Shown: piece by piece, positions 1-21,340 of the stretch
How the letters are laid out: each line of letters begins with the position of its first letter
How positions within the stretch are numbered: position 1 is the stretch's first letter
Translations under genes and position numbers: made by a program
Notes under the pieces: generated by a model
What the model was told of the DNA's origin: nothing
What the model saw: the letters and a program-made list of their open reading frames with translations, nothing else
Database searches by the model: none
IMG/VR virus record: IMGVR_UViG_3300035137_000015
Span: 1 to 53,031 of that record
Direction: 5' to 3' (one strand)
Length of the DNA stretch: 53,031 bases
Source of the DNA: a virus
Lineage: Duplodnaviria > Caudoviricetes

Positions 1-16
1 GGGCGCATACAAACAT
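1..16 (+). repeat. Terminal direct repeat, left copy (GGGCGCATACAAACAT)
   Basis: Identical to 53016-53031. Confidence 0.9.
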
Positions 17-67
17 GGCAGCCCCGGGGGTGGGGTTCACAGTACCTTTTTACAGTTGGGCTTTAAT

Positions 68-565
68 TTAGTATACAGGCATGTCCTCGTCAGCGACAAC
101 GGTCACTTTGCTCGCGCTGTCGAAGTCAACAACGTGCTCATGCGGAATCACCTCCTCGTGAAGTCGCTGGTGCGTCGCCTCATCCGGCGCGAGGTACATC
201 GTTATATCCAGCCTGTTGCCGCGCTTCTCCACCTGCGGCTTCGGCATCTTGATGCTGATATATTTGTACCAGTCGCAATACCGTTTGAATCCGTCCATGA
301 TGGCCCGTCTCGTCTTCGGTCTTATCCTGGACATCGTGGCCTTCTCACACTGGATGTTCGATCCAGTGAGCATATCTCTCACGGCGGCATAGACGGCGCC
401 AACGTAGATGGCCCGCTCCTTCTTCTTCCTCAGCCTCTTCCTACCCCTCATCGCCGTCCTCCTCGCGCATCTTCCTCTCAATCTCGTCAAGCCGCTTGTC
501 CATATGAACATAGCGCTCCATCCAAACCAGAAGCTTCTTCTCCACCTCGCAGACCTCGCGCCCAA
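68..565 (-). CDS. Hypothetical phage protein (start uncertain)
   Basis: 165-aa ORF on the dominant coding strand; no recognisable motif. Confidence 0.4.
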   Translation of the reverse strand: MGARSARWRRSFWFGWSAMFIWTSGLTRLRGRCARRTAMRGRKRLRKKKERAIYVGAVYAAVRDMLTGSNIQCEKATMSRIRPKTRRAIMDGFKRYCDWYKYISIKMPKPQVEKRGNRLDITMYLAPDEATHQRLHEEVIPHEHVVDFDSASKVTVVADEDMPVY

Positions 566-704
566 TGCCCTCGATTGCCCTGAGCCTTTCCAAGATGTCC
601 TCCTGGACCTTCTCTACTGCTGATACCCTGCTGACGAAGTCCTGATACATCCAAAAAAGCTTTGCGTGAAGCTCCGAAGGCTTCATATCGTCGATGTCTG
701 TCAT
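441..704 (-). CDS. Hypothetical coiled-coil protein
   Basis: MTDIDD... heptad-like E/K/L-rich sequence; start moved to ATG 704. Confidence 0.45.
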   Translation of the reverse strand: MTDIDDMKPSELHAKLFWMYQDFVSRVSAVEKVQEDILERLRAIEGIGREVCEVEKKLLVWMERYVHMDKRLDEIERKMREEDGDEG

Positions 705-816
705 TGATTTTCGCCTTTCGAATTCGATACATTGATCGAATATGCCATCCCGCGCCCCCTCCCACAGCGCCCTCAAACTCTACTATACGTTGGTATAGGG
801 GCGCAAGGGGGAGATC

Positions 817-1578
817 TTAACCCCTGTTCCGAAACGCCCGCTGCTTCTCAATCTGCCGGATCAGTGCGTCTCGGTAGTAGTCCCCGAGGTGGGCCGTTAC
901 AAACCGTGTAGGCGGCCCTAGCCAATCCCTTGCCCTCGTGTACAAGGTCGTGTGTTCCATGCTGTAGAGCATCCGGAGGCGGGCACCTGTGGGCCATCCG
1001 CGCTTGACTCTGCGCCCCCCGAGTACGCGGTAGAAGCCCTTTTTGTACTTGTTGGAGGCCTTCCCCCTGACACCAAGAAAAATCGTCCTGTCGCCCGACT
1101 CGACAGCATCCTGGACGCGCCTAATAACGGCCTGCTTGGTGTTCTTGTACTTTTCCCGAATGCGCTTCGCCACTTTGAGCCGGTTTATCCAGTTGGACCG
1201 ACGAATCACCCGGGTCCTCGGCTTCGCCCCCTCCTGGCCCGCTGCAGCCGACGTGGGCAGGGGGACTCCGTGCTTGCCCCGCGTGTGCTCGGTGAACCCT
1301 TCGGTCTGCTTCCGCATGAAGTCCTCGGTGGAACCGGCCGCGCTCTCCATGTCTTCGATTCGTCGCGAGAAGGTCTTCTGGAAGCGGATCGATCTCTGAA
1401 CGAAGGTGTTCCGGATGGTGAAGAGTTGCCCGACCTTTTTTTTGGACAAGTCGCTCGCCTTGTAGGCGGCGGTGTTGAGCGTGCCACGGATTGCGTAGGG
1501 CATCCCCTGTTTGCCGAACTTGTCGAGATCGTTCTCGTACTGCTCGAGGGGGTAGGTGTCTAGTTTGATGTCAAACAC
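817..1578 (-). CDS. Putative tail-completion/minor tail (gpZ-like) protein
   Basis: Basic protein with 'AIRGTLNTAA...FTIRNTFVQRSI' segment resembling gpZ-like neck proteins; GTG start at 1578 after GGAG. Confidence 0.4.
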   Translation of the reverse strand: MFDIKLDTYPLEQYENDLDKFGKQGMPYAIRGTLNTAAYKASDLSKKKVGQLFTIRNTFVQRSIRFQKTFSRRIEDMESAAGSTEDFMRKQTEGFTEHTRGKHGVPLPTSAAAGQEGAKPRTRVIRRSNWINRLKVAKRIREKYKNTKQAVIRRVQDAVESGDRTIFLGVRGKASNKYKKGFYRVLGGRRVKRGWPTGARLRMLYSMEHTTLYTRARDWLGPPTRFVTAHLGDYYRDALIRQIEKQRAFRNRG

Positions 1579-1822
1579 CGCCGTCTCCTCTCCCTGCGTC
1601 CGGATACCCGATGCCACCGGCGGGCTCCGGGTAGGTTTCGGCATCCTCGTCAGCATCCGTGTCGGTGTCGTCCGCTTCGGCGAGCAAGCCGTGGGCAAGC
1701 GGAGCATCCGTCCTCTCAAGCATCGGAACAACTGGCTCCGTGTCCGTGAGCGCTTCGGTGTCGGTGTCCGCCGGGGCCGCCTCGTGGCACCCGACGATAG
1801 CCATCACAAAAACAATCTTCAT
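1571..1822 (-). CDS. Small acidic lipoprotein
   Basis: MKIVFVMAIVG-C lipobox-like signal followed by DTDT-rich acidic stretch. Confidence 0.5.
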   Translation of the reverse strand: MKIVFVMAIVGCHEAAPADTDTEALTDTEPVVPMLERTDAPLAHGLLAEADDTDTDADEDAETYPEPAGGIGYPDAGRGDGGV

Positions 1823-2059
1823 CAGTTTTCCAAGCATTCATTCCTCCTTCGTTGGTCATCACTTGGATCGTAGCACTTCGTAGGTCTCCGAACCAATGTT
1901 TTCCGCACGCGCCTGAGCGTTCGAGCACCTGCGCCCCCAACGGATGTACGCGCACCCACCCTTGCTGGTTGTTTCGGCGCTGTAGCAATTCTCAAAGTGG
2001 GAGCACGGCGCTCCGCACACCCAGGGTGTTCGGAGCAGTATCCGTGCCTGGCTTCATGC

Positions 2060-2407
2060 TCACTCCCTAGATGCACCTTTCGGAATTTGTGGACAAGGCG
2101 AAACAGAATTCCACTTGTTTGTGACGTGGTTCACCCGGTCAACAAACGCCTCCATGGTACAGCCATGATCTGCAACAAACAGAGGCACCCCGTCTTCACC
2201 ATCCTTGCTGTCGTATAGCTCTACATGAAACATGCACTCCTTGTTCTGGCAATGTAGATAGAGGCGATATTGGCGGTCTCCAGCCTGCTGGAGGTACCAT
2301 GCCGGAAGCTTCCCGCAGTACGGGCATGGGCCTGGCCGCCAAATGAGAAATGCGCCAAACTCAGCGCTTTTTTTGGGTTCTACTTTTATATCCATCTTTG
2401 ACTCCAT
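2060..2407 (-). CDS. Hypothetical zinc-ribbon protein
   Basis: CPYC...CQNKEC motifs; true start MESKMD after AAGGA, downstream of the repeat array. Confidence 0.55.
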   Translation of the reverse strand: MESKMDIKVEPKKSAEFGAFLIWRPGPCPYCGKLPAWYLQQAGDRQYRLYLHCQNKECMFHVELYDSKDGEDGVPLFVADHGCTMEAFVDRVNHVTNKWNSVSPCPQIPKGASRE

Positions 2408-2441
2408 TCTTCGTTCCTTTCGTTTCCGAGTTAAAAACCGT

Positions 2442-2467
2442 GTTTTACACCCCGTCGGGTCTTTGCT
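2442..2467 (-). other. Conserved 3' hairpin motif of downstream pentamer array
   Basis: Minus strand AGCAAAGACCCGACGGGGTGTAAAAC, near-identical to motif at 3525-3548. Confidence 0.6.
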
Positions 2468-2769
2468 GGGCTCAGCCTGGCTGCGCCGTTCCTCTGCCCA
2501 TCCTTGCCACGCCGTTGCATCGCCACGCCTTGCGACGCATTGCCGTTGCAATGCTCGGCCGCGCCCTGCACAGCCGTTGCCCGGCCGAGCAATACGAAGC
2601 CGTTGCAGCGCCTGGCCGCGCAGCGCGAGGCCACGCCGCTGCCATGCCGTTCGAAGCCTCGCCCTGCCGTTGCAAAGCACTGCCCCGCCATGCGAGGCCA
2701 AGCCGTCGCAAGGCAGTACCGGGCCCTGCCAAGCCTTTGCCAAGCGGAGCCGCGCAACGCCGTCGCAAA
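2465..2769 (-). repeat. Pentamer-periodic array B (candidate guide ncRNA)
   Basis: Plus-strand GCNNN pentamers punctuated by GCCGTT-like hexamers at 2485, 2511, 2542, 2573, 2599, 2635, 2666, 2702, 2733, 2759 (spacing 26/31/36). Confidence 0.85.
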
Positions 2770-2770
2770 C

Positions 2771-3502
2771 CTATTGAATCTCTTCCCACTCAAACCGACC
2801 CATCCCGCTGTTCCGCCACTGTCCGATCCCCTTGCGCTTCCCGTAATCCAGTGCCTGGCGGACGAATTTCTCGTATCCCGGATACATTACCTCTACCTCA
2901 AATTCGATCTGAGAGCCCTTCGGGATCTTCTCCGAGCACGCCAGCGCGACGCGCTCCCCCTTCATCGTTTCGGCTCGGAGCGGCCTGACCTCAAGCTTGT
3001 CATTTTTGTGATCTGGTTCCAGCGACCTCTTGCACCAGTCGACAGAGCTTTGACCTTCTGGGAATTTGATCGGGATTTCGCGAGGGTAAACGAAAATGTA
3101 ATTGTCCACCCGGCGCTTCACGACAAAGAACGAAATCTCACTGCATCCTGTTGGCCGGATGACTCCGCCATTGTCGACGAATATTCCGAACATCTCCTTG
3201 ATGAACCCTTTGATCTGGTAATCCAAGAAGATCGGAACGTTCTCATCGTCCTCGGACCTGCGGAAAACGGTCATGCCCTTTTCCTCAAGCTCCTCCTGCG
3301 GGAGGTTTTTAAGCTCGTCCTTGACCTTCTCCTTGTCTGCCGAGTTTTTACCGATGTGCTTTGAGTATATCTCGGGATCGGCCGGAGATGTACCGAGGAC
3401 CGGCCTCGTGAATGTGAGCCGGACCTTGATGGTTTTCGGATCGAACTCTGCTGTTTTCTTCGGTGGTTTTGCGGTTTTCTTTTCGGTTTTCTTTTCAGTC
3501 AT
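2771..3502 (-). CDS. Stand-alone Cas7/RAMP-like protein between pentamer arrays
   Basis: N-terminal beta strand 'IKVRLTFTRPVLG', 'YQIKGFIKE' helix, 'SEKIPKGSQIEFEVEV' strand and C-terminal G-rich loop 'GIGQWRNSGMGRF' typical of RAMP fold. Confidence 0.75.
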   Translation of the reverse strand: MTEKKTEKKTAKPPKKTAEFDPKTIKVRLTFTRPVLGTSPADPEIYSKHIGKNSADKEKVKDELKNLPQEELEEKGMTVFRRSEDDENVPIFLDYQIKGFIKEMFGIFVDNGGVIRPTGCSEISFFVVKRRVDNYIFVYPREIPIKFPEGQSSVDWCKRSLEPDHKNDKLEVRPLRAETMKGERVALACSEKIPKGSQIEFEVEVMYPGYEKFVRQALDYGKRKGIGQWRNSGMGRFEWEEIQ

Positions 3503-3524
3503 TTTTCTTGCCTTTCAGCTGGTT

Positions 3525-3548
3525 GTTTCGCCCCGTGGGGCCTTTGCT
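3525..3548 (-). other. Conserved 3' hairpin motif of upstream pentamer array
   Basis: Minus strand AGCAAAGGCCCCACGGGGCGAAAC, near-identical to motif at 2442-2467. Confidence 0.6.
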
Positions 3549-3560
3549 TTTCAAGTCATC

Positions 3561-3810
3561 GCCTTGCTCTGCCGTTGCCGGGCAGTGCCGAGCATTGCCG
3601 TTGCCCTGCTGCGCCGCGCCACGCCGCTGCCATGCCGTGCAAAGCCTCGCCCTGCCGTTGCTACGCCGAGCGCCGCACTGCCGTTGCCGAGCTGCGCGAC
3701 GCTTTGCCGTTGCTCTGCCGGGCAAAGCCCTGCCCCGCCGTTGCTGGGCTTTGCTGCTCGCCGCGTTGCCGTTGCATTGCCAGGCAGATCTGAGCCAAGC
3801 CGTTGCTGCC
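3561..3810 (-). repeat. Pentamer-periodic array A (candidate guide ncRNA)
   Basis: GCNNN pentamers with GCCGTT/GCCGCT hexamers at 3571, 3597, 3623, 3654, 3680, 3706, 3737, 3768, 3799 (spacing 26/31). Confidence 0.85.
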
Positions 3811-3816
3811 ATCTGC

Positions 3817-4554
3817 TCATCGTCTCCTTGCCTTCGCATAAATCCGAATCCTCTCCTCTACATCAACCTGTATCTGCCGTATTCTCTCCCGCGTCAGCCC
3901 GAGGATATCCCCGACTTCAGCCAATGACATCCCGGCCGCGCGGCAGGTGAAGACGATCCGCTTCTTCGCATCCATCCGCATCACCGCGCACCATGCAACA
4001 CGGCGCATTTCATCGACGGAAATCCTGTCTACCGTCTCGTTTTCACCACCAGGCCCCGGTATGACATCTTTCAACGTGAACCCGTCGTCTTTGTGTCGAA
4101 GCTCAACGTCCATCGACTCGCAATAGACCAACGCTTCACAAATCTTCTTCGCGCCTTTTTTCGACAACTGCCCCCTTCGTAATTCGAGGGCCTCAACCGC
4201 CTCGTCAATGGTAGGCATTCTGCCCGTTCGCCGCTCTTCCTCCTTTCGGTACTTGTGAACCTTTCGGCGGATCTCGTCTGCGTGGAATGGGACATAAATG
4301 TGACTGCTCAGGACGATTGCGCGTTGAATAAAACACCGGATCCACCAGTGAGCGTAGGTCGAAAACTTGAAACCCCTCGATTCGTCGAAAAGCTCTGCCG
4401 CCCGCAGAAGTCCGATATATCCCTCCTGCTTGATGTCCTCGATGTCCATCCCAGATCGCCGATACTCGTTTGCTATGGCCGCGACGAGCCCCTTGTTCTC
4501 GATGGCGAGTTGGTTTCTGCGGTCAATCGCGGCATGATCCATCGCGGCGCTCAT
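3817..4554 (-). CDS. RNA polymerase sigma-70 family factor
   Basis: Region 2 'DIKQEGYIGLLRAAELFDESRGFKFSTYAHWWIR' and region 4 'SLAEVGDILGLTRERIRQIQ'; ATGA overlap with cysH-like stop. Confidence 0.92.
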   Translation of the reverse strand: MSAAMDHAAIDRRNQLAIENKGLVAAIANEYRRSGMDIEDIKQEGYIGLLRAAELFDESRGFKFSTYAHWWIRCFIQRAIVLSSHIYVPFHADEIRRKVHKYRKEEERRTGRMPTIDEAVEALELRRGQLSKKGAKKICEALVYCESMDVELRHKDDGFTLKDVIPGPGGENETVDRISVDEMRRVAWCAVMRMDAKKRIVFTCRAAGMSLAEVGDILGLTRERIRQIQVDVEERIRIYAKARRR

Positions 4555-5255
4555 TTGACAACGCCCGAAGCTGCGATTCTGTTCAAGACATCTGGGTAGT
4601 ACTCTCGCTCCCATTCGGTTCTCCCCATGCCGTTCCCTGTCGTTCCGGACAGCGAGTGTGTTCGGAGATTCTCTCTTTTGTACCGTCCTCCTCCCAGATA
4701 TCCGTAGACCGGTGAAAGCGGAAGTCCATTATCGTGGATGTATGCGAATATTTCAGACGATCTCCAAAGAGACAGCGGCCTACAACTGTTTTTGCTAGCG
4801 AAACCATTGACGCACCATTGCAATGAGCGAACCGAAGATTCATCATTTCTAATGCCAGAGCACCTCTTTCCATACTTTTCAAAAAGTATTTTCCAATGTT
4901 TGTCTCCTTTTCTCACATCGCGATATTCGAAAACTTCTTCTTTGTAATCGAAATCGTGGGTGCGCATGAAGACGTCTCTAACCGAATCACAGTCCGGATT
5001 TGCCCGGTCACTAAATCGCATATACACAACAGATCTTTCGATGCCGCATTTCAAAAATAAATCCAACAATACGATACTATCTTTTCCCCACGAAACCATA
5101 ACGCAAGATTTATCGTTAGAGGAAAGGAAATCTCGCATCACGGTTATTGACTGGTCGCATTTCTGCTCCGACCATTTAGACATCGCATCAATCTCCTCGT
5201 AGTCTGACCACAAAGCGAGATCTTCTGTTGAGTGCCTATCTGTACGTATCAGCAT
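4551..5255 (-). CDS. cysH: CysH/PAPS-reductase-like PP-loop protein associated with type IV-B Cas
   Basis: 'VSWGKDS' PP-loop, 'GIRNDES', 'RPLSLWRSSEIFAYI..NGLPLSPVY' motifs; adjacent to csf genes. Confidence 0.85.
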   Translation of the reverse strand: MLIRTDRHSTEDLALWSDYEEIDAMSKWSEQKCDQSITVMRDFLSSNDKSCVMVSWGKDSIVLLDLFLKCGIERSVVYMRFSDRANPDCDSVRDVFMRTHDFDYKEEVFEYRDVRKGDKHWKILFEKYGKRCSGIRNDESSVRSLQWCVNGFASKNSCRPLSLWRSSEIFAYIHDNGLPLSPVYGYLGGGRYKRENLRTHSLSGTTGNGMGRTEWEREYYPDVLNRIAASGVVK

Positions 5256-5440
5256 ATCCTATACCTGTTCCCTGGAAGTTCTTGCACCGGCAAAAACAAT
5301 GACAGTTCGTTGATTATCCTAATTGCTGTCCTGCGGTTCACTTCAAGCAATGCAGCAATTTCGGATGTAGTGTGCTCCCTTGATCTCAATGCGTCCTCGG
5401 CTCTCCTGCGCCGTTGGTATGGCGTGTCTGTTCTCAGCAT
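5249..5440 (-). CDS. Small HTH DNA-binding protein
   Basis: 'TTSEIAALLEVNRRTAIRII' HTH; overlaps both neighbours via ATGCTGA. Confidence 0.7.
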   Translation of the reverse strand: MLRTDTPYQRRRRAEDALRSREHTTSEIAALLEVNRRTAIRIINELSLFLPVQELPGNRYRIC

Positions 5441-6117
5441 GGTATCCCCACTTCCATGAATGTTTCTGGGTGCCAGTACGGTGGGAAAGCGCCACCGAAA
5501 GAATGTCGGTATCCGGTAGCATGGGCATCCTTTACGGCTCCTATCGGCAGCGTCTTCATTAGGACAGTCCCTCCCTTATTCGGTGCGAACAGGGAGTAAT
5601 CATCAGGCTGTTCGGAGTATTCCCATCCGGCTATTCTACCGTACCCGTATGACCTGCAATGCCCAAGCGCTACGATGCGCTTCAGGAGCTTGTTCATCTC
5701 CTTCCTGTCCCCGCGAACAAACCAGTTGACGGAATCTACAACGCGTATACGGAGCGGAACAAAACGCGATTTATAAGGGCCGCTCGAGGTGAGGAGCTTC
5801 TTCCTGCTTCGCGCGCCAAGAAGCGCCGCGCAAATGTCGGTATCGAACCTCTTTGATTGTCGCTCCGTGTATTCGGCAAACACGTTTCCGAGTATCGGAT
5901 CAGAGGAGCAGTAAAAATCGATCCCACCGATGGTTCGCTTGGAAACCGGGATCGGCGGGTGCTTGATTTCGGACAGCGGCACGTTCCGCGTGAGCTTCTT
6001 CGCCATCTTGTACCCGAGGCGAAGCGCCAGCTCGTATTCGAGCAACGCATCAATCCGAGGGGGGGCCCCGCAAAGCGGTGATGACAAGTTGCACTTCACT
6101 AGCCAGTTCTTCAGCAT
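5434..6117 (-). CDS. csf3: Type IV CRISPR-associated Csf3 (Cas5-like RAMP)
   Basis: 'LSSPL...IDALL', 'SGPYKS', G-loop 'LGHCRSYGYGRI', C-terminal 'PPYWHP'; ATG overlaps csf2 stop. Confidence 0.82.
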   Translation of the reverse strand: MLKNWLVKCNLSSPLCGAPPRIDALLEYELALRLGYKMAKKLTRNVPLSEIKHPPIPVSKRTIGGIDFYCSSDPILGNVFAEYTERQSKRFDTDICAALLGARSRKKLLTSSGPYKSRFVPLRIRVVDSVNWFVRGDRKEMNKLLKRIVALGHCRSYGYGRIAGWEYSEQPDDYSLFAPNKGGTVLMKTLPIGAVKDAHATGYRHSFGGAFPPYWHPETFMEVGIPC

Positions 6118-7016
6118 CAGAAATTCTCCCGTAGCCACTCGGAGAGCTCGTCGACGTGTGTATTGACGTGGGCGATGTAATCTTTGATAAGCTCGCACGG
6201 GTCTTTCAGCGCACCGAACCAATCTTCGAGACCCTCGATGTGCAGCGACGTGTTGAGCTTCCCGTGCCCGATTCTCGCGCTTCCACCGATGGTCCCGCCG
6301 CCGTTTTGCCAGAGGTGGATCGCGTGGAGCGCCGCCCCTACCTCCAACGGTGACACGTTGTACAGAATCACATCGTGATAAAATATCGCGCCCTGAATAA
6401 CGGTCTCTCCATTGTACACCATTAGATTTGATTTCGGTGCCGCGTCGCCCTTCACGATCTCTGAAGCGTCTTTCATTCTTGCCGCGTCACCTCGTGTATA
6501 CTGATACTTCGAAATGAACGATTGAGCGGGCATCAATTTTTCATCCACAATTCCGAATATTGATGGAGCGGTTTTTTCGAGCACGCCCTTATTCTCTTCG
6601 CAGACCAAAATACCGCGCGACACGAACAGGGACCCGCCGACGACCTGGTTCTTCAGCGCACCTCCGAGAAGACGATACAGTGGAGACACCGTGTGGAGCT
6701 TTGCGATCGCAGGGATGTTGTCCGTAGTGGAAGACTCCGTCAGGCTCCCGCCGGTGAACATGTAGTTCGCCTGGTCGATGTTCAGGTTCCCGCGTAAGCC
6801 GCAGGCGTCGACCAGGTACAGAGCCCCAGGCCCACGGATCATCCGGTGGCGAAGCGCATTGCCGCTGAGCACCGGAACTTCTACCACGTCGTTCTTGAAG
6901 ACGACCTTCTCTCGGTTAAGGATTGACTCGTTACCCGATACGCCTGACATGTGCGTAATCGGAGACATGGCCTCTGAGAGCATATGAATTTTGCATGTCC
7001 CGATCTGTTTCATCAC
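6117..7016 (-). CDS. csf2: Type IV CRISPR-associated Csf2 (Cas7 backbone)
   Basis: 'SPITH', 'VPVLSGNALRHRMIR', 'FTGGSL', 'LLGG', G-loop 'IGGSARIGHG'. Confidence 0.87.
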   Translation of the reverse strand: MMKQIGTCKIHMLSEAMSPITHMSGVSGNESILNREKVVFKNDVVEVPVLSGNALRHRMIRGPGALYLVDACGLRGNLNIDQANYMFTGGSLTESSTTDNIPAIAKLHTVSPLYRLLGGALKNQVVGGSLFVSRGILVCEENKGVLEKTAPSIFGIVDEKLMPAQSFISKYQYTRGDAARMKDASEIVKGDAAPKSNLMVYNGETVIQGAIFYHDVILYNVSPLEVGAALHAIHLWQNGGGTIGGSARIGHGKLNTSLHIEGLEDWFGALKDPCELIKDYIAHVNTHVDELSEWLRENF

Positions 7017-7474
7017 TCACCTTCCTTTAGGTCACGCTTAGCGTCTTTTATCGATCCCCACAGATTTCTGGCGTAAACCAGTATCACATTGCTCTTCTTC
7101 TCGATTGTCCGAAGGAATGCCATCTTGTCATCATCGCTCTTCTGCTCAAACGATATGAGCCATTTTTCGAGACGAGAGTTTGATGCAACCATAGCAGGAT
7201 TGGCCTTGATGAAATCCAGCGCCAAGTTGACAAACTCCTCGAAGTCTCCACCACACTTTTTGCATGATGAAACAATTCCATTTCCAATGCGTTCCCACAT
7301 CGTCATCCGGTCGAGCTCTGAAGAAAACAGCTCAGGCAAAATCGAACAGAAGCTGACCGCGTTTCCTTTCGCTTCCTCCATCATCTCGGCATTTTGATCG
7401 CTTGTTCGGTAATCGATCACTCCCGCAAGCTTCTGTCTGAACTCTTGCGCTGACAAAATCTTCATCTCTCGCAT
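7013..7474 (-). CDS. Cas11-like small helical subunit (type IV-B)
   Basis: ~150-aa helical-looking protein between csf1 and csf2, the cas11 position in IV-B loci; start at 7474 or 7465. Confidence 0.6.
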   Translation of the reverse strand: MREMKILSAQEFRQKLAGVIDYRTSDQNAEMMEEAKGNAVSFCSILPELFSSELDRMTMWERIGNGIVSSCKKCGGDFEEFVNLALDFIKANPAMVASNSRLEKWLISFEQKSDDDKMAFLRTIEKKSNVILVYARNLWGSIKDAKRDLKEGE

Positions 7475-8165
7475 CCTTTTTTCCTTTGCATACCCAAGCC
7501 GCAATTCGCGCCATGGGCTCATTGTGAATTTCGATCCATTCCTCAAGAATGGTTTCGTCTCCAAAATACTTCACGGTATTCAGAAAGCACGTAAACTCCT
7601 CTGGTGAAAGCAGCGCCTTCTTTCCAATCGCAGCGCTGGCCAACGTTGCTGCTTTCAAGAAATGTTCCCAGCGGCCTGCATCTATCTCAATCTGCTCTTC
7701 CTCGAGTTGGACAACAAACCATTCCCTATCGTTATTGACCGGAGCCCTAAAGATGATCTGCTTTTTCCCGCTTTCGGCGAGAACGATTGAAAACGGTGGA
7801 GCCGGGGGACATGACAAAATCTTCCTAGCGTAATCGAGATGTTTTTTACTGAACGCCGTGTTCCCCTGGGTTGATAGAACCCACGAATAGGTCCTAGGAG
7901 CTCCTCCCCTACCGGTCTTTACCTCGCCGTCAACGAGAGTTGTGTCGACGATGGTGTCCATTGATGCCACGCAGCATCCACAAACAAAATCGCTTCCAGG
8001 AAACTTGACTATGTCTCTATTGGTGAATGTCTTCTTTACGTATACGGATTTATTGTATTCGTTTCCGCATTCGAGACCGCAATAGTAACACCTGTTGTTA
8101 CCTGGAATATATTTATCTGGCGCGAATAGATATGGAGCAGTCATAAACGATGGGGTAATCATCAT
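7332..8165 (-). CDS. csf1: Type IV CRISPR-associated Csf1 (Cas8-like large subunit)
   Basis: Zn-finger CYYC...'TFTNRD..KFPGSDFVCGCC', 'PPAPPF..VLAESGKKQIIFRAPVN' motif. Confidence 0.8.
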   Translation of the reverse strand: MMITPSFMTAPYLFAPDKYIPGNNRCYYCGLECGNEYNKSVYVKKTFTNRDIVKFPGSDFVCGCCVASMDTIVDTTLVDGEVKTGRGGAPRTYSWVLSTQGNTAFSKKHLDYARKILSCPPAPPFSIVLAESGKKQIIFRAPVNNDREWFVVQLEEEQIEIDAGRWEHFLKAATLASAAIGKKALLSPEEFTCFLNTVKYFGDETILEEWIEIHNEPMARIAAWVCKGKKDARDEDFVSARVQTEACGSDRLPNKRSKCRDDGGSERKRGQLLFDFA

Positions 8166-8657
8166 TCACCTTCCAATCACGAGCGCACCGATGATAATTC
8201 CAACCCCGACACCAACCAGCGTCGCACCGCCGCCAATCAGTATCGCTCGTAGCTTTGCCTTCCTGGCCTCTCCCCCGGCTCTCTTCTGGTCGCTCTCGCG
8301 GAGTTGGTACACAAACTGCCTGTCGTCCTCTGCGGCCCTTAGCGTCGTGTTACAGCGCTCCAGGGATGTCTCGAGGGATGATAGGTGAAGCTCAATGTTT
8401 TCGACCTCATCATTCAGCTCAAGGTGCAACTCGGAGAGCGTCCGGTATGTCGCATAAATCCTGAGCACGCCCTGGAACCCGCGAAAGTCCGTCTTGACAA
8501 ACTCTTTCCCTCCGATCTCGAGTCGCTCGAAATCCGGGAGCGGCAAATCAAGGTTTATATCGGACCTTCCCTTGTCCGCGTAACTCATCCGCGATTGTAA
8601 GCAGGTCACCAATGCTGCCAGCAGAATCAATCCTGTCAACGGTCTCGGCGTTTGCAT
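8166..8657 (-). CDS. Coiled-coil membrane-associated protein (possibly spanin-like)
   Basis: N-terminal signal-like segment, coiled coil, C-terminal hydrophobic helix; in lysis-gene neighbourhood. Confidence 0.4.
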   Translation of the reverse strand: MQTPRPLTGLILLAALVTCLQSRMSYADKGRSDINLDLPLPDFERLEIGGKEFVKTDFRGFQGVLRIYATYRTLSELHLELNDEVENIELHLSSLETSLERCNTTLRAAEDDRQFVYQLRESDQKRAGGEARKAKLRAILIGGGATLVGVGVGIIIGALVIGR

Positions 8658-8928
8658 CGTATTTCTCCTTCACGTGCTCTTTTATTTCGTCTCGGATCTT
8701 CTTCATCCTGTCCCGGTCGGCTTCGGCCGCTGCCTCGGTCTCGAAGTGCGACTCAACGCGGTCGTCAACCGACGCCTTGTGATGGGTCACGATCTCTTCC
8801 GGGGTCACGCGTACCGAGCAGCGCCACATGAATAGTAGGGCGATGCCGAGCACCACGGGGATGGCGAGAAGTACCTTCCAATACCATTTCAGGTTGACGA
8901 ATCCATCCCATAGGGTTTTGGGTGTCAT
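8548..8928 (-). CDS. Membrane-anchored protein (possibly spanin-like)
   Basis: One N-terminal TM helix followed by charged helical region; overlaps next gene. Confidence 0.4.
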   Translation of the reverse strand: MTPKTLWDGFVNLKWYWKVLLAIPVVLGIALLFMWRCSVRVTPEEIVTHHKASVDDRVESHFETEAAAEADRDRMKKIRDEIKEHVKEKYDANAETVDRIDSAGSIGDLLTIADELRGQGKVRYKP

Positions 8929-9221
8929 GGCGTCTCCTTTCTGTTCTGGCTGGTCTCGCGCCGCTTTTCGAGATGGCCCTCAATGTCGTTCGAAAGCGCT
9001 CCCTTCACGGTCCCAAGAAACCGGTCCACCGTCGCCTGGTTTGTGAGGTACGACACCGTCACGGTTGTGAGCCCAAGGGCGATGATGCCCATTACAACCC
9101 CGGTCATCGTGTTGAACGCTGCGCCCTGGACGATGGCCAGCACCAGACACCCTCCAAGAACCGCGATCGACGCAAAGAATGCGGCGAACTTTTTCGAGTT
9201 AAAAATATTTTTGTCTTTCAT
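8925..9221 (-). CDS. Putative holin
   Basis: 98 aa, 'SKKF' N-terminus, two TM helices, charged C-terminus, near amidase. Confidence 0.55.
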   Translation of the reverse strand: MKDKNIFNSKKFAAFFASIAVLGGCLVLAIVQGAAFNTMTGVVMGIIALGLTTVTVSYLTNQATVDRFLGTVKGALSNDIEGHLEKRRETSQNRKETP

Positions 9222-9427
9222 TTCTCGACCCCCTTGAGTGTCTCCTTCCAGTTGGAGACGAAGAGGGGCACGCCGTAACCGTGTTTGAAGCTCCATCGGC
9301 TTTCAAGCGGCGTAACGTCTGCCCTCTCGGAGAACCCCCATGGTGTCCCCCATTGGTCAACGGCGAAGCGGTCGCAATCCACCGGCACCTCTACCTCGAT
9401 TTCGATCTTTACTCGTCTCGTTTTCAT
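9218..9427 (-). CDS. Hypothetical phage protein
   Basis: MKTRRVK... with 'FAVDQWG..WGF' motif; overlapping start/stop with neighbours. Confidence 0.45.
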   Translation of the reverse strand: MKTRRVKIEIEVEVPVDCDRFAVDQWGTPWGFSERADVTPLESRWSFKHGYGVPLFVSNWKETLKGVEK

Positions 9428-9663
9428 GGCGTCACGCCCTCCAGTTCGCACAAGCTTTTTTCCAAATCCTCGCAATACGGAGGAATGTCGACCTCGCAAG
9501 AATCCGCGCAATTCATCCATTGTCCTCGAAATTTTATTGGCTTGAAAACGCCAAAAACACGAACCGATTTATCCCAGTCAATCGCAATCCATTCAGCCCA
9601 GTTCGGGCACCAGACGGTATGGTCAACGCCATCGCACCTGAATTTCTTCATTACGATTCTCAT
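9424..9663 (-). CDS. Hypothetical phage protein
   Basis: 'WIAIDWD..V.VF..KP' motif, loosely similar to the adjacent ORF. Confidence 0.45.
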   Translation of the reverse strand: MRIVMKKFRCDGVDHTVWCPNWAEWIAIDWDKSVRVFGVFKPIKFRGQWMNCADSCEVDIPPYCEDLEKSLCELEGVTP

Positions 9664-10271
9664 GGCGTCACCGTGTCCATTTCATATCGAAGCATCGCCG
9701 CGACATGCGAAGCGGCGATCGCTTGTCGCCCTGCTGGCCGGGATAGAAGTTCGCAGTCGCTTTTCGATGTCATGAATCCGTTTTCGGTGAGCACGGCAGG
9801 CATCTTAGTGCGCTTCAAGACGTAAAAACCCGCCACCTTTATGCCCCTGTTTCGGAGAACTATTTGGGGGAGTTCTTCAGACAGAATTAACGCCAGGTTC
9901 TGTTCTGGAATGGATGCTCCAGGTTTTATGAACACCGCAAAACCTTCTGCGTTGCTCCACCCTCCTTTCCCGGACGCGTTCGCGTGAACAGAGATGAACG
10001 CGCAACGGTGCGTCTCGTTGAGCTTGTTTGCTCGCCGTACGCGCTCCCGCAATGGAATCGATTCTTTTTGGACCACGATGTCAACGCACTGAATACCTGC
10101 CGCCTCTCCGAGGCTTATGATCCGGTTGACAACATCTCGGTTGAACTCCCACTCATAGATCCCTGGCGGAATCTCCGGACTTCTTTTCCCAGGCGTGTCA
10201 CACCCGTGACCAGGGTCAAGAAGCCAAAGCAGTTTTGACGGGTCTATGTTTGTGATCTTGATGTCAGTCAT
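9660..10271 (-). CDS. N-acetylmuramoyl-L-alanine amidase (Amidase_3 endolysin)
   Basis: 'LDPGHG', 'E', 'FISVHANA', 'FYVLKRTKMPAVLTENGFM' zinc-amidase motifs. Confidence 0.92.
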   Translation of the reverse strand: MTDIKITNIDPSKLLWLLDPGHGCDTPGKRSPEIPPGIYEWEFNRDVVNRIISLGEAAGIQCVDIVVQKESIPLRERVRRANKLNETHRCAFISVHANASGKGGWSNAEGFAVFIKPGASIPEQNLALILSEELPQIVLRNRGIKVAGFYVLKRTKMPAVLTENGFMTSKSDCELLSRPAGRQAIAASHVAAMLRYEMDTVTP

Positions 10272-10477
10272 CTCACTTCTCCTTCGCGAGCAACTCGCGG
10301 AGCTTCGCGCGTGCGTCCGCGCGGGCATCTCGTGATGTGCATTTGCCGAATTCGGAGTTTTTGCAATACGGACTCATCATTTCCGGAACGCAAAAACGGC
10401 AATGTTTGTCGTCCCCCGTAGACCCGCAGAAATACCTCAACACTTTTCCCCTGGCGCTTACCGCGCACATGTTTCGT

Positions 10478-10714
10478 TTAGTCATCGTCCCTCCATTGGC
10501 ACGACAGATCGCGCCTCGTCTCCCAGTCGTCGCAACCGGACATATTGGCACTCACGTACCACTCGTTTTTGATGCACGCCCCGTACCATTGCGGGGGCGG
10601 CTTTTTCGGTAGTCTGATGAGCAGCGGAAGAGAGTCGCGTCGCTCGAAGTCTCTGCCCTTTTTCGATCTGCGGTAGTGGATGCACTTCCCGCAGGGTTTT
10701 TCCGGAGCGCCCAT
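10478..10714 (-). CDS. Small Cys-rich hypothetical protein
   Basis: CGKCIHY...GAC...GCDDW pattern common in phage early genes. Confidence 0.45.
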   Translation of the reverse strand: MGAPEKPCGKCIHYRRSKKGRDFERRDSLPLLIRLPKKPPPQWYGACIKNEWYVSANMSGCDDWETRRDLSCQWRDDD

Positions 10715-11103
10715 CAGTACACCTTCCCTTGGATAAACTCGCCTATCATGTAGGCTTCTATCGCGTTGATCCCTGACTGCGCCGGGTAGTCGGTCCTGGT
10801 CACGAATGTTGCAAATCCTTGTCTTCGGACGTATTCGCCAAACGCGATCTGTTCCGGTGACAACTTGTCCTCCCCGACTTTGACCTCGACGTACAGCCCG
10901 TTGTGCAAACTTCTAAAGTTGGGAACCGGCATAAACAGATCCCACACTCCGGCGAGGACTCCCTCGCGCTTGAGCTTCGCGGCCTCGGTTTTGCTGCGCT
11001 TGCCACCGTTCGGGCACGCGTAGATCCACTCCGCTCCGCCGCCACGGAGACGGCAATACCTGACGATCTCGCATTGGGCCTTGTGGTGTTCATCGGATCT
11101 CAA
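10714..11103 (-). CDS. VRR-NUC family nuclease
   Basis: 'PNGGKR...AKLKREGVLAGVWDL...LYVEVK...LSPEQ' motif; TTG start inferred from overlap. Confidence 0.88.
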   Translation of the reverse strand: MRSDEHHKAQCEIVRYCRLRGGGAEWIYACPNGGKRSKTEAAKLKREGVLAGVWDLFMPVPNFRSLHNGLYVEVKVGEDKLSPEQIAFGEYVRRQGFATFVTRTDYPAQSGINAIEAYMIGEFIQGKVY

Positions 11104-12140
11104 AACAGACTCCCTTGCTCGCTGGCTACACAGTGAGGAGAAAACCAAATCCTCTCCTTGTATTTGTTTTTGTTGCCATCAGAGTTCCGTGAAGCATATC
11201 CTCCTCTTGTTTTCCAAGATACGCATTCCCAGCTTGGCGGCATCTCGTGCTCTCCTTCATAGCCGCAGAGCGCGATCCGCATGTTCTTGTCTTCACCGTG
11301 TTCAATTGCCCACCTCCTCACATCATCGGACACCGAAAGCGACTCTTTTGCGTACAAAGATGAGCATCTTTGAGCGGCTTCGCCGTAGGGAGGGTCCAAA
11401 AATACGGCTGTGGTCCCCCGTATTGTGGTTGGTGTTGGGCCACATACCCGAGACCAGTCTCCGCAACAAACTCTCACGCGTCGCATGCGTTCGGACAGTT
11501 TTTCGAACCACTCATAAATTCCGCCCTTCCTGTGGACGCCTCGCCCGGCATTCCCGAGGTGGACGAGCTTCCTGTGGACGCCTCGCCCGGCATTCCCGAG
11601 GTGGACGAGCTTCCTGTGGACGCCTCGCCCGGCATTCCCGAGGTGGACGAGCTTCCTGTGGACGCCTCGCCCGGCATCCCCGAGGTGGACGAGCTGGCCG
11701 TCTACGACCTGCCACGGACCTTTCCCGCTGCAAAATTCGCTTCCTATCCAACAGCAGATCCCCCAGACCCACCACCCGGCTATTTTTGCGTCGTAGTAAT
11801 CCGGGTCACCCTCGAGGAGTGGAGTCAAACTTTCCCGCTGGTTGATCAACCACGCGTGACGCGCATGGAGATCATTTTCGTTCACAGGCCAATCTGCGTA
11901 ACGAGCCACTTCGCTAGGATCAGACGATACGGATCTCCAAAAGTTGGCAACAAATCCGTCCAGGTCGTTGATCGTTTCTGTCCTGTTAACGCGCGGAGAG
12001 CCGAGCAATACAGCACCAGATCCGAAAAACGGTTCAACGTAATTGTCAACCTGGCCAAATCTTTTCCAGACAAGATCGGCGACCATCGACTTTCCGCCAA
12101 ACCATGGGAACGGGGCCTTTAGCGGTTCATCGGATCTCAT
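11100..12140 (-). CDS. DNA adenine methyltransferase (Dam/D12 class)
   Basis: 'PFPWFGGK', 'YVEPFFGSGAV', 'INDLD', catalytic 'FLDPPY'. Confidence 0.92.
   Translation of the reverse strand: MRSDEPLKAPFPWFGGKSMVADLVWKRFGQVDNYVEPFFGSGAVLLGSPRVNRTETINDLDGFVANFWRSVSSDPSEVARYADWPVNENDLHARHAWLINQRESLTPLLEGDPDYYDAKIAGWWVWGICCWIGSEFCSGKGPWQVVDGQLVHLGDAGRGVHRKLVHLGNAGRGVHRKLVHLGNAGRGVHRKLVHLGNAGRGVHRKGGIYEWFEKLSERMRRVRVCCGDWSRVCGPTPTTIRGTTAVFLDPPYGEAAQRCSSLYAKESLSVSDDVRRWAIEHGEDKNMRIALCGYEGEHEMPPSWECVSWKTRGGYASRNSDGNKNKYKERIWFSPHCVASEQGSLF
11526..11693. repeat. 4 x 42-nt in-frame tandem repeat within methyltransferase
   Basis: CTTCCTGTGGACGCCTCGCCCGGCATTCCCGAGGTGGACGAG x4 (one mismatch) = (LVHLGN/DAGRGVHRK)4. 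Confidence 0.95.
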
Positions 12141-13553: not shown

Positions 13554-13626
13554 CTCAGCACCTCCAATGCGATCTCCCCCGCCGCAGCCAGCAGGAGGAG
13601 GTAGATTGAAACTCCGGTCCGGTTCA

Positions 13627-14145
13627 TCACATCACCTCCAGTATCCATATGAGGTACTTCTCGAGCGCGGCGTACCTGGCGGCGTCGCTGATGGCAACAC
13701 GGGAAGCGTCCCTGGCGGCGTCGCTGATGGCAACACGGGAAGCGGCCCTGGCGGTGTCCCAGACAGCGTCCCAGGCGGCGGACCTGGCGGCGGCCCTGGC
13801 GGGGTTCCAGACAGCGTCCCAGGCGGTGTTCCAGGCGGTGTCCCAGGCGGTGTCCCAGGCGGCCTCATATCCGGTCACCAGATACCACCAGACCACGTCC
13901 GGACAGCCCCAGTATGGCTCCACGTCCAGCGCGATTCGTCGCGCCACTCGGTTTGCTCTCCACGGCGAGTGAGCGTGAAGCATCTCCGACAAAGCCCAAA
14001 TCCGGTCGAGGACCGGGATGTCTAGCCCCGCGATGTCGTCTTGGGTGAGAATCTCGCGCCCTGCCCACAGCTCTCGGACCCGCTCTTCGGGGTAGTCGTC
14101 GCAAGGACCGAAAGACATGATATCTTCTACGGTCGCGGTCAGCAT
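13627..14145 (-). CDS. Ala/Trp-repeat protein, paralog of 20861-21340
   Basis: AWDTAWDTAWNTAWDA repeats; strong N-terminal similarity to 20861-21340. Confidence 0.65.
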   Translation of the reverse strand: MLTATVEDIMSFGPCDDYPEERVRELWAGREILTQDDIAGLDIPVLDRIWALSEMLHAHSPWRANRVARRIALDVEPYWGCPDVVWWYLVTGYEAAWDTAWDTAWNTAWDAVWNPARAAARSAAWDAVWDTARAASRVAISDAARDASRVAISDAARYAALEKYLIWILEVM

Positions 14146-19971: not shown

Positions 19972-20861
19972 ACCCTTTTCCTCCTCATCGTTCGAGATGT
20001 TGTTGGCTTGACGGTGCACGTATACCCCTTTCGCGTGGTGGTCGTGAGCGTCAAAATTGTTCCGTCTGGAAGAGCGCCGAATGTCGCGTCTCCAATCATG
20101 GCGCGGAGCTTGGCCTCAAGCTCGTCCAGCGACCTCTTGCAGCTCGTGATATTCTCCTTGGCCTGCTCCCATTCGTTCGCCAGCTCTACTGCATATGAGT
20201 CGAGGGGAACCGTCTCGCCGTTGTCCTCAGGGTAGAGCCTCTTGATTGCATCGAGGCACTTCGGTGACGAGACGGGCGGCGGATCCTTGTCAATGATTCG
20301 CTGCCGGAATATCTCGAGCCGTGGGATCATTGATTCAATGAAATCATCGTTTCGATCCATGTCGCCGAGGTGGATCTCAATCCCTCCGACGACTCCGCAG
20401 TAGGCCCCCCACGAAGCATCTTTGCAGGCAACCTGGGTCTGAAGCTGTATCTGCAACCAAATGGGAATGTCCCCGTCCCACTCGCGGCGTTTCATAAATC
20501 CGGCGTGCTTGATCTCGAGCGGGGAAGGGGGATCGAGCATTGGATCTTCGTCGATGTCCCATGTGTCCCGGTCCACTGTCGCACCGAGCCACGGTATCGA
20601 CGGGTGGATGGTGATGTCGGTTGCTCCCGTGTCGCGCACATATCGCCCCGTTTTGGCCGCGTAGACGTTCGCTATTCCGTCCTCTAGCTCCCTGCCGAGG
20701 AGCATGGCGTCATTGTCCTCGATCTCTTCTCCGGTCACTTTTGAGACGTAAACATCAAGCGCCGTCCGACGCGGATCGAATCCAAGGATCGCCGCAACGT
20801 CGGACGCGGTGATAAGCTCTCGGCGCTTGGCCAGCCATTCGGCGCGGGATATGGTTTTCAT
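19968..20861 (-). CDS. YqaJ-like viral recombinase/exonuclease
   Basis: 'EWLAKRRELITASDVAAILG', 'GRELE', 'HPSIPWLGATVD', 'LEIK', 'QLQTQ'. Confidence 0.92.
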   Translation of the reverse strand: MKTISRAEWLAKRRELITASDVAAILGFDPRRTALDVYVSKVTGEEIEDNDAMLLGRELEDGIANVYAAKTGRYVRDTGATDITIHPSIPWLGATVDRDTWDIDEDPMLDPPSPLEIKHAGFMKRREWDGDIPIWLQIQLQTQVACKDASWGAYCGVVGGIEIHLGDMDRNDDFIESMIPRLEIFRQRIIDKDPPPVSSPKCLDAIKRLYPEDNGETVPLDSYAVELANEWEQAKENITSCKRSLDELEAKLRAMIGDATFGALPDGTILTLTTTTRKGYTCTVKPTTSRTMRRKRV

Positions 20862-21340
20862 TACATCACCTCCAGTATCCAGGACATGTATTTTTCAAAC
20901 GCCGAAGGAACATCGGATGACAGGTCGGCGGCCCAGGAGATACACATGGGGCACCCGTCTGCGTTGCCAACGGCGGCGTTAAATGCGGCGTAGCTGGAAG
21001 CCCCCCTGTGAGCCTTGGTGGCCCTGGCGGCGGCCATCAAGGCCGCCTTTCTTGCGGCCTCGTATCCGGTCACCAGATACCACCAGACGATGTCAGGACA
21101 GTCCCACAGGTGTGCTACGTCAAGCGCGACACGCCTCGACACTCGGTTGGCTCTCCACGGCGAACGGTCGTAGAGCATGCGTGACAGCACCCATATGCGG
21201 TCAAATAAATTGACATCGAGCGCGGCGATCTCGTCCTGTGAGAGCTTCTCGCGACAGCCCCAGAGCCAGCGCAGCCGTCCCTCTGTGTAGCCGGCGCACG
21301 GGCCGTATGACAGGATCTGCTCTACGGTCGCGGTGATCAC
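20861..21340 (-). CDS. Paralog of 13627-14145
   Basis: Shared 'TATVE.I.S.GPC', 'SPWRANRV', 'CPD.VWWYLVTGYEAA', 'EKY..WILEVM'. Confidence 0.65.
   Translation of the reverse strand: MITATVEQILSYGPCAGYTEGRLRWLWGCREKLSQDEIAALDVNLFDRIWVLSRMLYDRSPWRANRVSRRVALDVAHLWDCPDIVWWYLVTGYEAARKAALMAAARATKAHRGASSYAAFNAAVGNADGCPMCISWAADLSSDVPSAFEKYMSWILEVM

Follow-up and report, generated by a model that had tools for sequence, protein, structure and literature searches.

A probable VIPR-type locus with hexamer-punctuated pentamer arrays in the genome of a wetland phage

Results

Two pentamer arrays flank a gene for a 243-aa protein

We analyzed a locus on a 53,031-nt stretch of viral DNA (IMG/VR record IMGVR_UViG_3300035137_000015, positions 1 to 53,031; Duplodnaviria, Caudoviricetes), here called the window. 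The locus consists of an open reading frame (ORF) of 243 aa, the vipr-like gene, and two G+C-rich arrays of 5-nt units, A2 upstream and A1 downstream of it, and is a candidate for the phage-encoded system known as Viral Interference Programmable Repeat (VIPR). The coordinates of all features are given in Table 1. The arrays are co-oriented and were read on the minus strand, which is also the strand of the gene. A1 starts with the first bases past the stop codon of the vipr-like gene, and A2 starts ≈ 7 nt past the stop codon of a sigma-factor gene.

Tiling of the minus strand of A1 and A2 yielded 89 NNNGC pentamers and 20 hexamers of the AACGGC type. G occupied position 4 in 89/89 pentamers, a figure that is partly set by the parser because the tiling score favors G and C at positions 4 and 5. 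C was found at position 5 in 81/89 and G at position 3 in 43/89, and positions 1 and 2 were mixed. The hexamer was AACGGC in 13 of 20 cases, the others being AGCGGC, AAAGGC, GACGGC or AGAGGA. Consecutive hexamers were separated by three to six pentamers, and their start-to-start spacing was mostly 26 or 31 nt.

The tiling score was calculated by dynamic programming, and 500 dinucleotide-preserving shuffles served as controls. A2 scored 108 versus 42.3 for its shuffles (standard deviation 4.9; z=13.5), and A1 scored 118 versus 45.1 (standard deviation 4.7; z=15.4). When the whole window was scanned on both strands, all top-scoring 280-nt stretches fell in A1 or A2. The shuffle controls are free of the G/C bias of the tiling score, as is a scan for identity at a lag of 5 nt, which is blind to G and C and placed 25/25 of its top windows in A1 or A2.

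An earlier reading of the window, made from the sequence alone (the sequence-only reading), had described the 243-aa ORF, its terminal G-loop, two flanking arrays of pentamers with hexamer delimiters, and a downstream array that begins right after the stop codon. All of these were present. Its count of 80 pentamers differs from the 89 found here, the array ends having been set differently, whereas its base pattern stood: the C2, the G1 and, in roughly half of the units, the C3 of the plus strand correspond to G4, C5 and G3 of the minus strand.

At its end each array has a GCAAAG-R-CC motif with a hairpin of 4 bp, and folding and alignment revealed the same motif in a relative (L004). The fold energy of the tails was no better than that of shuffles (z -0.8 and 0.3). 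Each ≈ 300-nt array has a single tail, and the blocks, each a hexamer with its pentamers, have none of their own. A stretch of ≈ 79 nt, or about two blocks, is common to the two arrays (2615-2693 and 3603-3681; 80% identity), so that the same guide module or modules apparently occur in both. No CRISPR repeat-spacer array was detected in the 53-kb window, and Rfam gave no match in positions 1-12000.

Table 1. Position of the locus and of neighboring features in the window
Feature	Position	Strand	Remarks
vipr-like gene	2771-3502	minus	ATG-started ORF, 243 aa; predicted compact single-RRM Cas7-type RAMP
Upstream array A2	3546-3809	minus	42 NNNGC pentamers and 10 hexamers over 3540-3809; from parse, tiling and lag-5 scan
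Last A2 hexamer	3540-3545	minus	inside tail part of A2
3' tail of A2	3520-3547	minus	GCAAAGG motif, then 4-bp G:C hairpin; ends ≈ 17 nt before vipr start codon
Downstream array A1	2465-2770	minus	47 NNNGC pentamers and 10 hexamers over 2472-2770; from parse and tiling
3' tail of A1	2435-2466	minus	GCAAAGA motif, short G:C hairpin, then U-rich stretch
Zinc-ribbon ORF, 115 aa	2060-2407	minus	just downstream of A1; weak match to Lar-family restriction alleviation protein, below cut-off (E 0.0021)
Sigma-70 family factor	3817-4614	minus	regions 2 and 4
CysH/PAPS-reductase-like	4551-5255	minus	PAPS_reduct 2e-9
Small helix-turn-helix ORF	5249-5440	minus	
Csf3-like (cas5)	5434-6222	minus	NCBIfam E 4.8e-8, below curated cut-off
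Csf2-like (cas7), 299 aa	6117-7016	minus	NCBIfam E 1.2e-6, below curated cut-off; phrog_22746 E 1e-67
Putative Cas11	7013-7564	minus	by position only
Csf1-like	7332-8165	minus	NCBIfam E 2.2e-15, below curated cut-off

The 243-aa protein is predicted to have a Cas7/RAMP fold

Searches of Pfam, NCBIfam and PHROGs with the 243-aa protein gave no match, and a sequence search of PDB chains returned chance matches alone (E≥0.34). We therefore describe the protein from an AlphaFold2 model built with 40 homologues (mean pLDDT 74, pTM 0.71). The model has a beta-alpha-beta-beta-alpha-beta core preceded by a Lys-rich N-terminal extension (residues ~1-22). The C-terminal G-loop GIGQWRNSGMGRF sits between the final helix and the final strand of the model. 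A flexible thumb-like beta-hairpin at residues ~173-188 is poorly ordered in the model, with low confidence; just before it lies a 15-residue insertion (~157-171) that is found in 0/39 aligned relatives.

When the model was compared with the PDB by Foldseek, 130 or more matches reached E≤0.001. In the best one (E 2.8e-7) the partner was a chain from an entry of a type VII CRISPR-Cas complex, entries of type III-A Csm complexes came next, and the top listed matches were CRISPR effector complexes of type VII, type III Csm/Cmr and Cas7-11/gRAMP. In an independent all-against-all structural alignment (VIA-align), 9g9a_D from a type III-A Csm complex scored Z 12.7 with a root-mean-square deviation of 4.2 over 153 residues, and Csm3 (6ae2_B) scored Z 12.2; RAMPs made up nearly the whole match list. 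The best match among viral models carries the depositor name 'Cas system-associated RAMP superfamily protein' (40% identity). The RAMP assignment of the sequence-only reading holds for the predicted structure.

The array grammar is shared by a large clade

A search of one collection at E≤0.001 gave 1985 members of the family of the vipr-like protein, and a second collection contained 1499 representatives at 50% identity; more than 554 relatives are found in viral contigs. Most relatives are ~197-200 aa long, in agreement with a core of ~200 aa. We examined two sets of 80 best loci, one from viral contigs (viral loci) and one from assemblies of bacteria and archaea (genome loci). A punctuated NNNGC array lay within 1.5 kb of the gene and on the same strand in 66/80 viral loci, mostly with its start at the stop codon, and an array score on the opposite strand was obtained in 1/80 only. 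Same-strand arrays were also present at 58/80 genome loci. Some of the loci counted as array-less end too early. The genome loci are mostly from gut Clostridia bins, and the closest one is from a Dehalococcoidia bin (44% identity).

In all, 71 arrays of the family contained 3354 pentamers and 681 hexamers. The family pentamer is N-N-N-G(95%)-C(67%)/A(20%) and the family hexamer AAHGG[A/C]. The parser favors A/G at hexamer positions 1-2 but leaves the spacing free; four, five and six pentamers were found in 145, 190 and 145, respectively, of the 610 intervals between hexamers. In 240 pairs of similar but non-identical blocks, which are not independent of each other, we counted 102, 157, 215, 41 and 97 substitutions at pentamer positions 1 to 5 and 0 in the GG of the hexamer. 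Related arrays differ by whole blocks, as seen from the index offsets of the blocks that they have in common. On the strength of the family consensus of units and hexamers and of these substitutions, the punctuated grammar is clade-wide and not peculiar to the window phage. It is a distinct grammar, in which each unit has two fixed bases and a hexamer recurs roughly every six units.

The hexamer punctuation seen in the sequence-only reading is therefore real and extends across the clade, whereas its variable dinucleotides are not borne out, since three positions vary per unit in the clade. Position 3 is G in 22% of the family pentamers versus about half in the window, and the high share in the window is probably owed to the G+C-rich phage. 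When the NNN triplets of the 80 viral loci and the window were read as codons, 67 sense stops were found versus 104.3 expected from position-wise base frequencies, a modest depletion; antisense stops numbered 86 versus 88.9 expected. A stop-codon test at the level of blocks gave the same result as shuffles.

Relationship with the published VIPR systems

The background in this paragraph is taken from the available text of the preprints cited. VIPR pairs a phage-encoded minimal RAMP protein, Vipr, with a vrRNA that contains GGY/NN repeats (10.64898/2026.04.26.720920). The vrRNA has 9-16 YNNGG repeats and a 3' tail. One Vipr protomer binds per repeat, the GGY being flipped out and held, and the NN pairs with double-stranded DNA such that every third target base is skipped; the outcome is silencing of rival phages and satellites (10.64898/2026.04.26.720920). 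The same source mentions alternative repeats (NNNGG, YNNNG and NNNNG) in its methods, reports 'staggered arrays with overlapping vrRNAs', ribozyme-interspersed arrays, seven types and 2,664 Vipr proteins, and places vrRNAs at '1 nt overlapping positions' in the legend to fig. S18. Repeats of the forms GAC/NN, CAC/NN, WGT/NN and TGH/NN have also been described (10.64898/2026.10.21.760802). In the structure of Vipr, G1 is read by H17 and D177, G2 by R138 and W178, and Y3 by R179, and the filament has six subunits per turn (10.64898/2026.04.26.720927). As far as the available text goes, biochemistry exists for VIPR type II only, from Escherichia phage SUSP1 and a Pseudomonas fulva prophage (10.64898/2026.04.26.720920, 10.64898/2026.04.26.720927).

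We compared a profile of 109 sequences of the window family with one of 56 sequences of the SUSP1 Vipr family using hhalign. The alignment (84.6%, E 6.8e-6) was colinear over 181 columns, from the first strand to the G-loop. In it, W178 and R179 of SUSP1 Vipr align with W229 and R230 of the window protein, both of which are invariant. The counterpart of D177 is Q228, and H17 is opposite a gap of five residues. This pattern fits the loss of reading of the first fixed G in the window clade, as judged from the alignment. The relaxed third base of the units would be explained by the loss or change of these two residues for the first G (H17 and D177). A relaxed third base had been pointed out in the sequence-only reading, and it matches the YNNNG repeat class in the methods of 10.64898/2026.04.26.720920.

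At the SUSP1 locus (L081 in our set), which reads as published, the Vipr gene encodes 195 aa, and NNGGT units form one array upstream of the genes and further arrays downstream of them. The closest viral relative of the window gene (L001) carries two Vipr genes in tandem at 926-2749, each clade with its own repeat dialect. A SUSP1-type Vipr gene lies at 1198-1851 (hhalign 95%, E 3.6e-8) with an NNGGC array upstream, and a homologue of the window gene follows directly downstream (1864-2538) with its own NNNGC array downstream. This pairing of a SUSP1-type Vipr with a homologue of the window gene provides independent support for the link to VIPR.

Assignment of the locus, RNA-library contigs and target searches

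From the predicted fold, the profile alignment and the arrays beside homologues, we consider it likely, with good confidence, that the locus is a VIPR-type system of a myovirus-like tailed phage, that is, a system of a kind already known. The sequence-only reading, which had proposed a non-CRISPR RNA-guided system resembling VIPR, is supported: VIPR has been published, the profiles align over 181 columns, and period-5 arrays accompany the homologues on the same strand. Transcription, binding and guide function of the arrays would follow by analogy.

Contigs matching the locus were found in a wetland metatranscriptome library. A 261-nt contig (depth 2.3) was 100% identical to 2636-2896, which includes the 3' end of the vipr-like gene and part of A1, and a second RNA-library contig (depth ~2) covers 1800-1935. 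These contigs give a weak hint that vipr and A1 are co-transcribed. RNA-library cover was not found beyond these two segments, an absence that proves nothing.

Several points weigh against the assignment. Smaller profiles gave poorer alignments with SUSP1 Vipr: 9.3% for 40 sequences versus the single protein and, for 40 versus 32 sequences, 38.5% over the G-loop only. A tblastn search of 50,697 phage records likewise failed to recover SUSP1. The two families appear to be remotely homologous, on sequence evidence that is not overwhelming, and the remoteness itself counts here. The assignment is by fold, remote profile alignment and arrays, and not by placement among the 2,664 proteins and seven types of the preprint. 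The RNA contigs are of low depth and strandless and may reflect DNA carry-over, and we found no sigma-70-like promoter beside A1 or A2. The 80 viral loci yielded no conserved neighbor gene, including any vap-like accessory gene, in a neighbor clustering that was swamped by spurious array ORFs. Finally, target searches that specified two or three bases per unit and skips of 0-3, among them gapped searches with the variable bases as envisaged in the sequence-only reading, gave no excess over shuffled controls in databases of 0.1-4.7 Mb, which afford low power.

The individual target searches were as follows. When all blocks of the 80 viral loci and the window were compared with 1.8 Mb of masked loci, the sole excess was at a 5-nt target period; it is most likely due to unmasked arrays. 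Window blocks matched their own genome as often as controls did. A lack of self-targets has also been reported for other VIPR types in the available text of 10.64898/2026.04.26.720920, matching the result for the window. Multi-block patterns spanning hexamers gave 12 and 8 matches at 16 specified bases in 3.8 Mb versus ~5 by chance, and none of five such matches that were extended reached past the seed. Comparison of window blocks with relatives carrying the type IV-B module described below and with the closest Vipr relatives gave no support for targeting, nor did site counts versus unit-order shuffles in 4.7 Mb.

The phage genome and an adjacent type IV-B-like module

The window covers all or a large part of the genome of a myovirus-like phage. 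It carries genes for the large and small terminase, portal, major head protein, tail sheath, tape measure, baseplate and endolysin, and all ORFs read as genes are on the minus strand. The whole window was found in one DNA run, which may be its source, and parts of it in another wetland DNA run. We also noted three sets of repeats elsewhere in the window. A near-perfect 42-nt tandem repeat of four copies (99% matches) occupies 11526-11695 inside a 346-aa ORF, the N-terminus of which matches a phage DNA methyltransferase family. A 300-nt direct repeat of 70% identity is present at 13834-14133 and 21029-21328, 7.2 kb apart, and a 46-nt repeat pair lies beside it at 13623-13668 and 20857-20902.

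The vipr-like gene is not the lone gene that the sequence-only reading had taken it to be; a sigma-factor gene and a cas module lie directly upstream (Table 1). By sequence similarity, 4551-8165 appears to encode an array-less Cas module like those of type IV-B, ~0.3-4.7 kb upstream of the VIPR locus. Cas6 and DinG were not noted in this module, and no search was aimed at either. An alignment-based search recovered the module from 29 viral loci (csf3 in 29, csf2 in 29, cas11 in 28, csf1 in 27 and cysH in 23), whereas a search of viral contigs with the single Csf2 protein gave none.

Homologues of csf1, cas11, csf2, csf3 and cysH were near 0/160 other loci of the window's Vipr clade, and the clade and the module are therefore not obligate partners. 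The sigma-70 factor was not found beside Vipr in those 160 loci or in the 29 type IV-B loci, and the genes just upstream of vipr in the closest relatives are mutually unrelated. A SUSP1-type Vipr with its own array occurred within 10 kb of the module in 2/29 other viral loci, which makes 3/30 with the window and three dialects, a raw count without a formal enrichment test. In one of the two (L180, 14624-15290), hexamer-free NNGGC units lie 2.3 kb downstream of cysH; in the other (L183, 330-1760), the units are NN[C/T]GA, carry long hairpin tails and lie ~4-5 kb upstream of csf1. Apparent arrays in two further loci (L182 and L186) proved to be Gly-rich and Pro/Ala-rich coding repeats and were rejected as false positives.

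Discussion

Proposed mechanism

By analogy with the published systems, the minus strand would be transcribed through A2, the vipr-like gene and A1. Vipr protomers would then line the array RNA, one per 5-nt unit, each holding the fixed G and C by means of the Trp-Arg pair of the G-loop and the thumb and presenting the variable bases. The resulting ribonucleoprotein filament may bind matching double-stranded DNA of a rival phage, a satellite or another mobile element and thereby silence it. Homology suggests the roles, with the array RNA as guide and the protein as backbone.

The hexamers call for an additional explanation. Provided that the locus is a VIPR, we lean slightly towards the view that they mark the borders of successive guide modules of 26, 31 or 36 nt and act as processing or register-reset sites, because the hexamer GG does not vary and related arrays are distinguished by entire blocks. 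Alternatively, ~50 units would form a single uninterrupted filament. The hexamer keeps both G's, and together with its 4-6 pentamers it amounts to about six units, which would correspond to one turn of the six-subunit filament. A 6-nt unit also shifts the pentamer register by one base, and this may be what the available text of 10.64898/2026.04.26.720920 calls '1 nt overlapping positions' (fig. S18).

Alternative explanations

The same parts could be decoded in another way, the three variable bases of each unit pairing with the target, either as a contiguous 3-base code or with some other skip, and the hexamer-bounded blocks acting as separate mini-guides. Position 3 varies as much as or more than positions 1-2, neither first-G reader of type II is retained, related arrays differ from one another by entire blocks, and sense stops are scarce in the NNN triplets (67 versus 104.3), all of which would agree with such a code. 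However, searches under a 3-base rule were no better than shuffles in databases of 0.1-4.7 Mb, the stop triplets are depleted yet present, the tail occurs once per array and not once per block, and the peak of substitutions at position 3 also fits an unconstrained base; we regard this decoding as unlikely. We consider it very unlikely that the arrays provide guide or scaffold RNA to the adjacent type IV-B Csf complex, alongside or instead of Vipr. That idea draws on the csf1-cas11-csf2-csf3-cysH genes, which immediately precede the locus on its strand with hardly any gap between genes, on the lack of a CRISPR array in the window, on the assembly of type IV-B complexes on heterogeneous non-CRISPR RNA (available text of PMC7937560) and on the VIPRs of other dialects within 10 kb of the module in 2/29 other viral loci. 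Yet the module genes are near 0/160 loci of the Vipr clade, 27/29 type IV-B loci have neither Vipr nor a period-5 array within 10 kb, and several unrelated genes separate the two systems in L180 and L183. The 6-nt step of Cas7, not 5 nt, speaks against it as well.

Two further explanations do without a guide RNA. The arrays could act as DNA, as iteron-like binding sites for a DNA-binding protein or as an element with a role in structure or recombination. The palindromic GC step produces the period of 5 on both strands, and no promoter-like site lies beside the arrays. Against this, the orientation of the hexamers follows the gene strand in 66/80 and 58/80 loci, the arrays abut a stop codon, the partner protein has a predicted fold of RNA-binding RAMPs, and an RNA-library contig crosses the junction between gene and array. 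A role as DNA is accordingly highly improbable in our view. Protein-coding arrays can be set aside with near certainty. ORFs of 105-227 aa do overlap the arrays on both strands and in several frames, but open frames are explained by the G+C-rich sequence, and a 5-nt step with blocks of 26 or 31 nt cannot hold a periodic frame. Moreover, the conserved sites are the G and C of the unit, with no 3-nt pattern, and the substitutions follow these bases and not codons.

Within the VIPR assignment, it is conceivable, although doubtful, that the arrays follow a syntax undescribed so far, in which a tailed transcript of ~300 nt is split by AAHGG[C/A] into modules of about one turn (26, 31 or 36 nt) with G and C fixed and three bases free, the modules forming a miniature repeat-spacer array or obeying a rule other than the 1-nt skip. 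The same doubt applies, separately, to cross-talk between VIPR and type IV-B beyond a common accessory-gene hotspot.

Significance of the locus

VIPR was reported only in 2026, as phage RNA-guided DNA silencing that has been proposed to be older than CRISPR. The window offers a clear and intact example from a wetland phage that belongs to a very large clade (~1,500 clusters at 50% identity). With its first-G readers lost or altered, this clade lends itself naturally to testing how the code is set by the protein and how long arrays are measured or cut. The presence of VIPR beside an array-less type IV-B module provides a concrete pair of systems for joint study.

Comparison with known systems

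The best structural matches of the 243-aa protein are Cas7 backbone subunits in type III-A Csm and type VII entries, which have the same fold with a G-loop and a thumb hairpin. They differ from it in sequence (8-18% identity), and the window differs in having no repeat-spacer array and a 5-nt RNA step. Cas7 backbones step 6 nt.

Type IV-B systems are likewise array-less, located on mobile elements and built from RAMP filaments, and one of them adjoins the VIPR locus of the window. They are made of other protein families, with four subunits and a cysH-like gene, and the Csf2-like protein is separate from Vipr.

The closest likeness is to VIPR type II. Both systems are phage-encoded and have a ~200-aa RAMP with an RRM, a thumb and a C-terminal G-loop holding a Trp-Arg pair; in both, arrays of 5-nt units flank the gene on the same strand without a CRISPR array. 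The SUSP1 units are NN-GG-T, with both G's fixed and in runs of 9-16 according to the available text of the preprint, whereas G-C alone is fixed in the window. SUSP1 runs are without hexamers (L081), whereas the window has one about every six units. In SUSP1 each vrRNA of ~100 nt bears a structured tail, again according to the available text, compared with one short tail per ~300-nt array in the window. No vap gene was recognized at the window locus, and its neighbors are the sigma-70 factor and the weakly Lar-like zinc-ribbon ORF. The conserved hexamer and the blocks of 4-6 units are unmentioned in the available text and legends, figures and data tables aside, of 10.64898/2026.04.26.720920 and 10.64898/2026.10.21.760802. 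Read from its C, the unit of the window is C-NNN-G, which fits the YNNNG class given in the available text of 10.64898/2026.04.26.720920.

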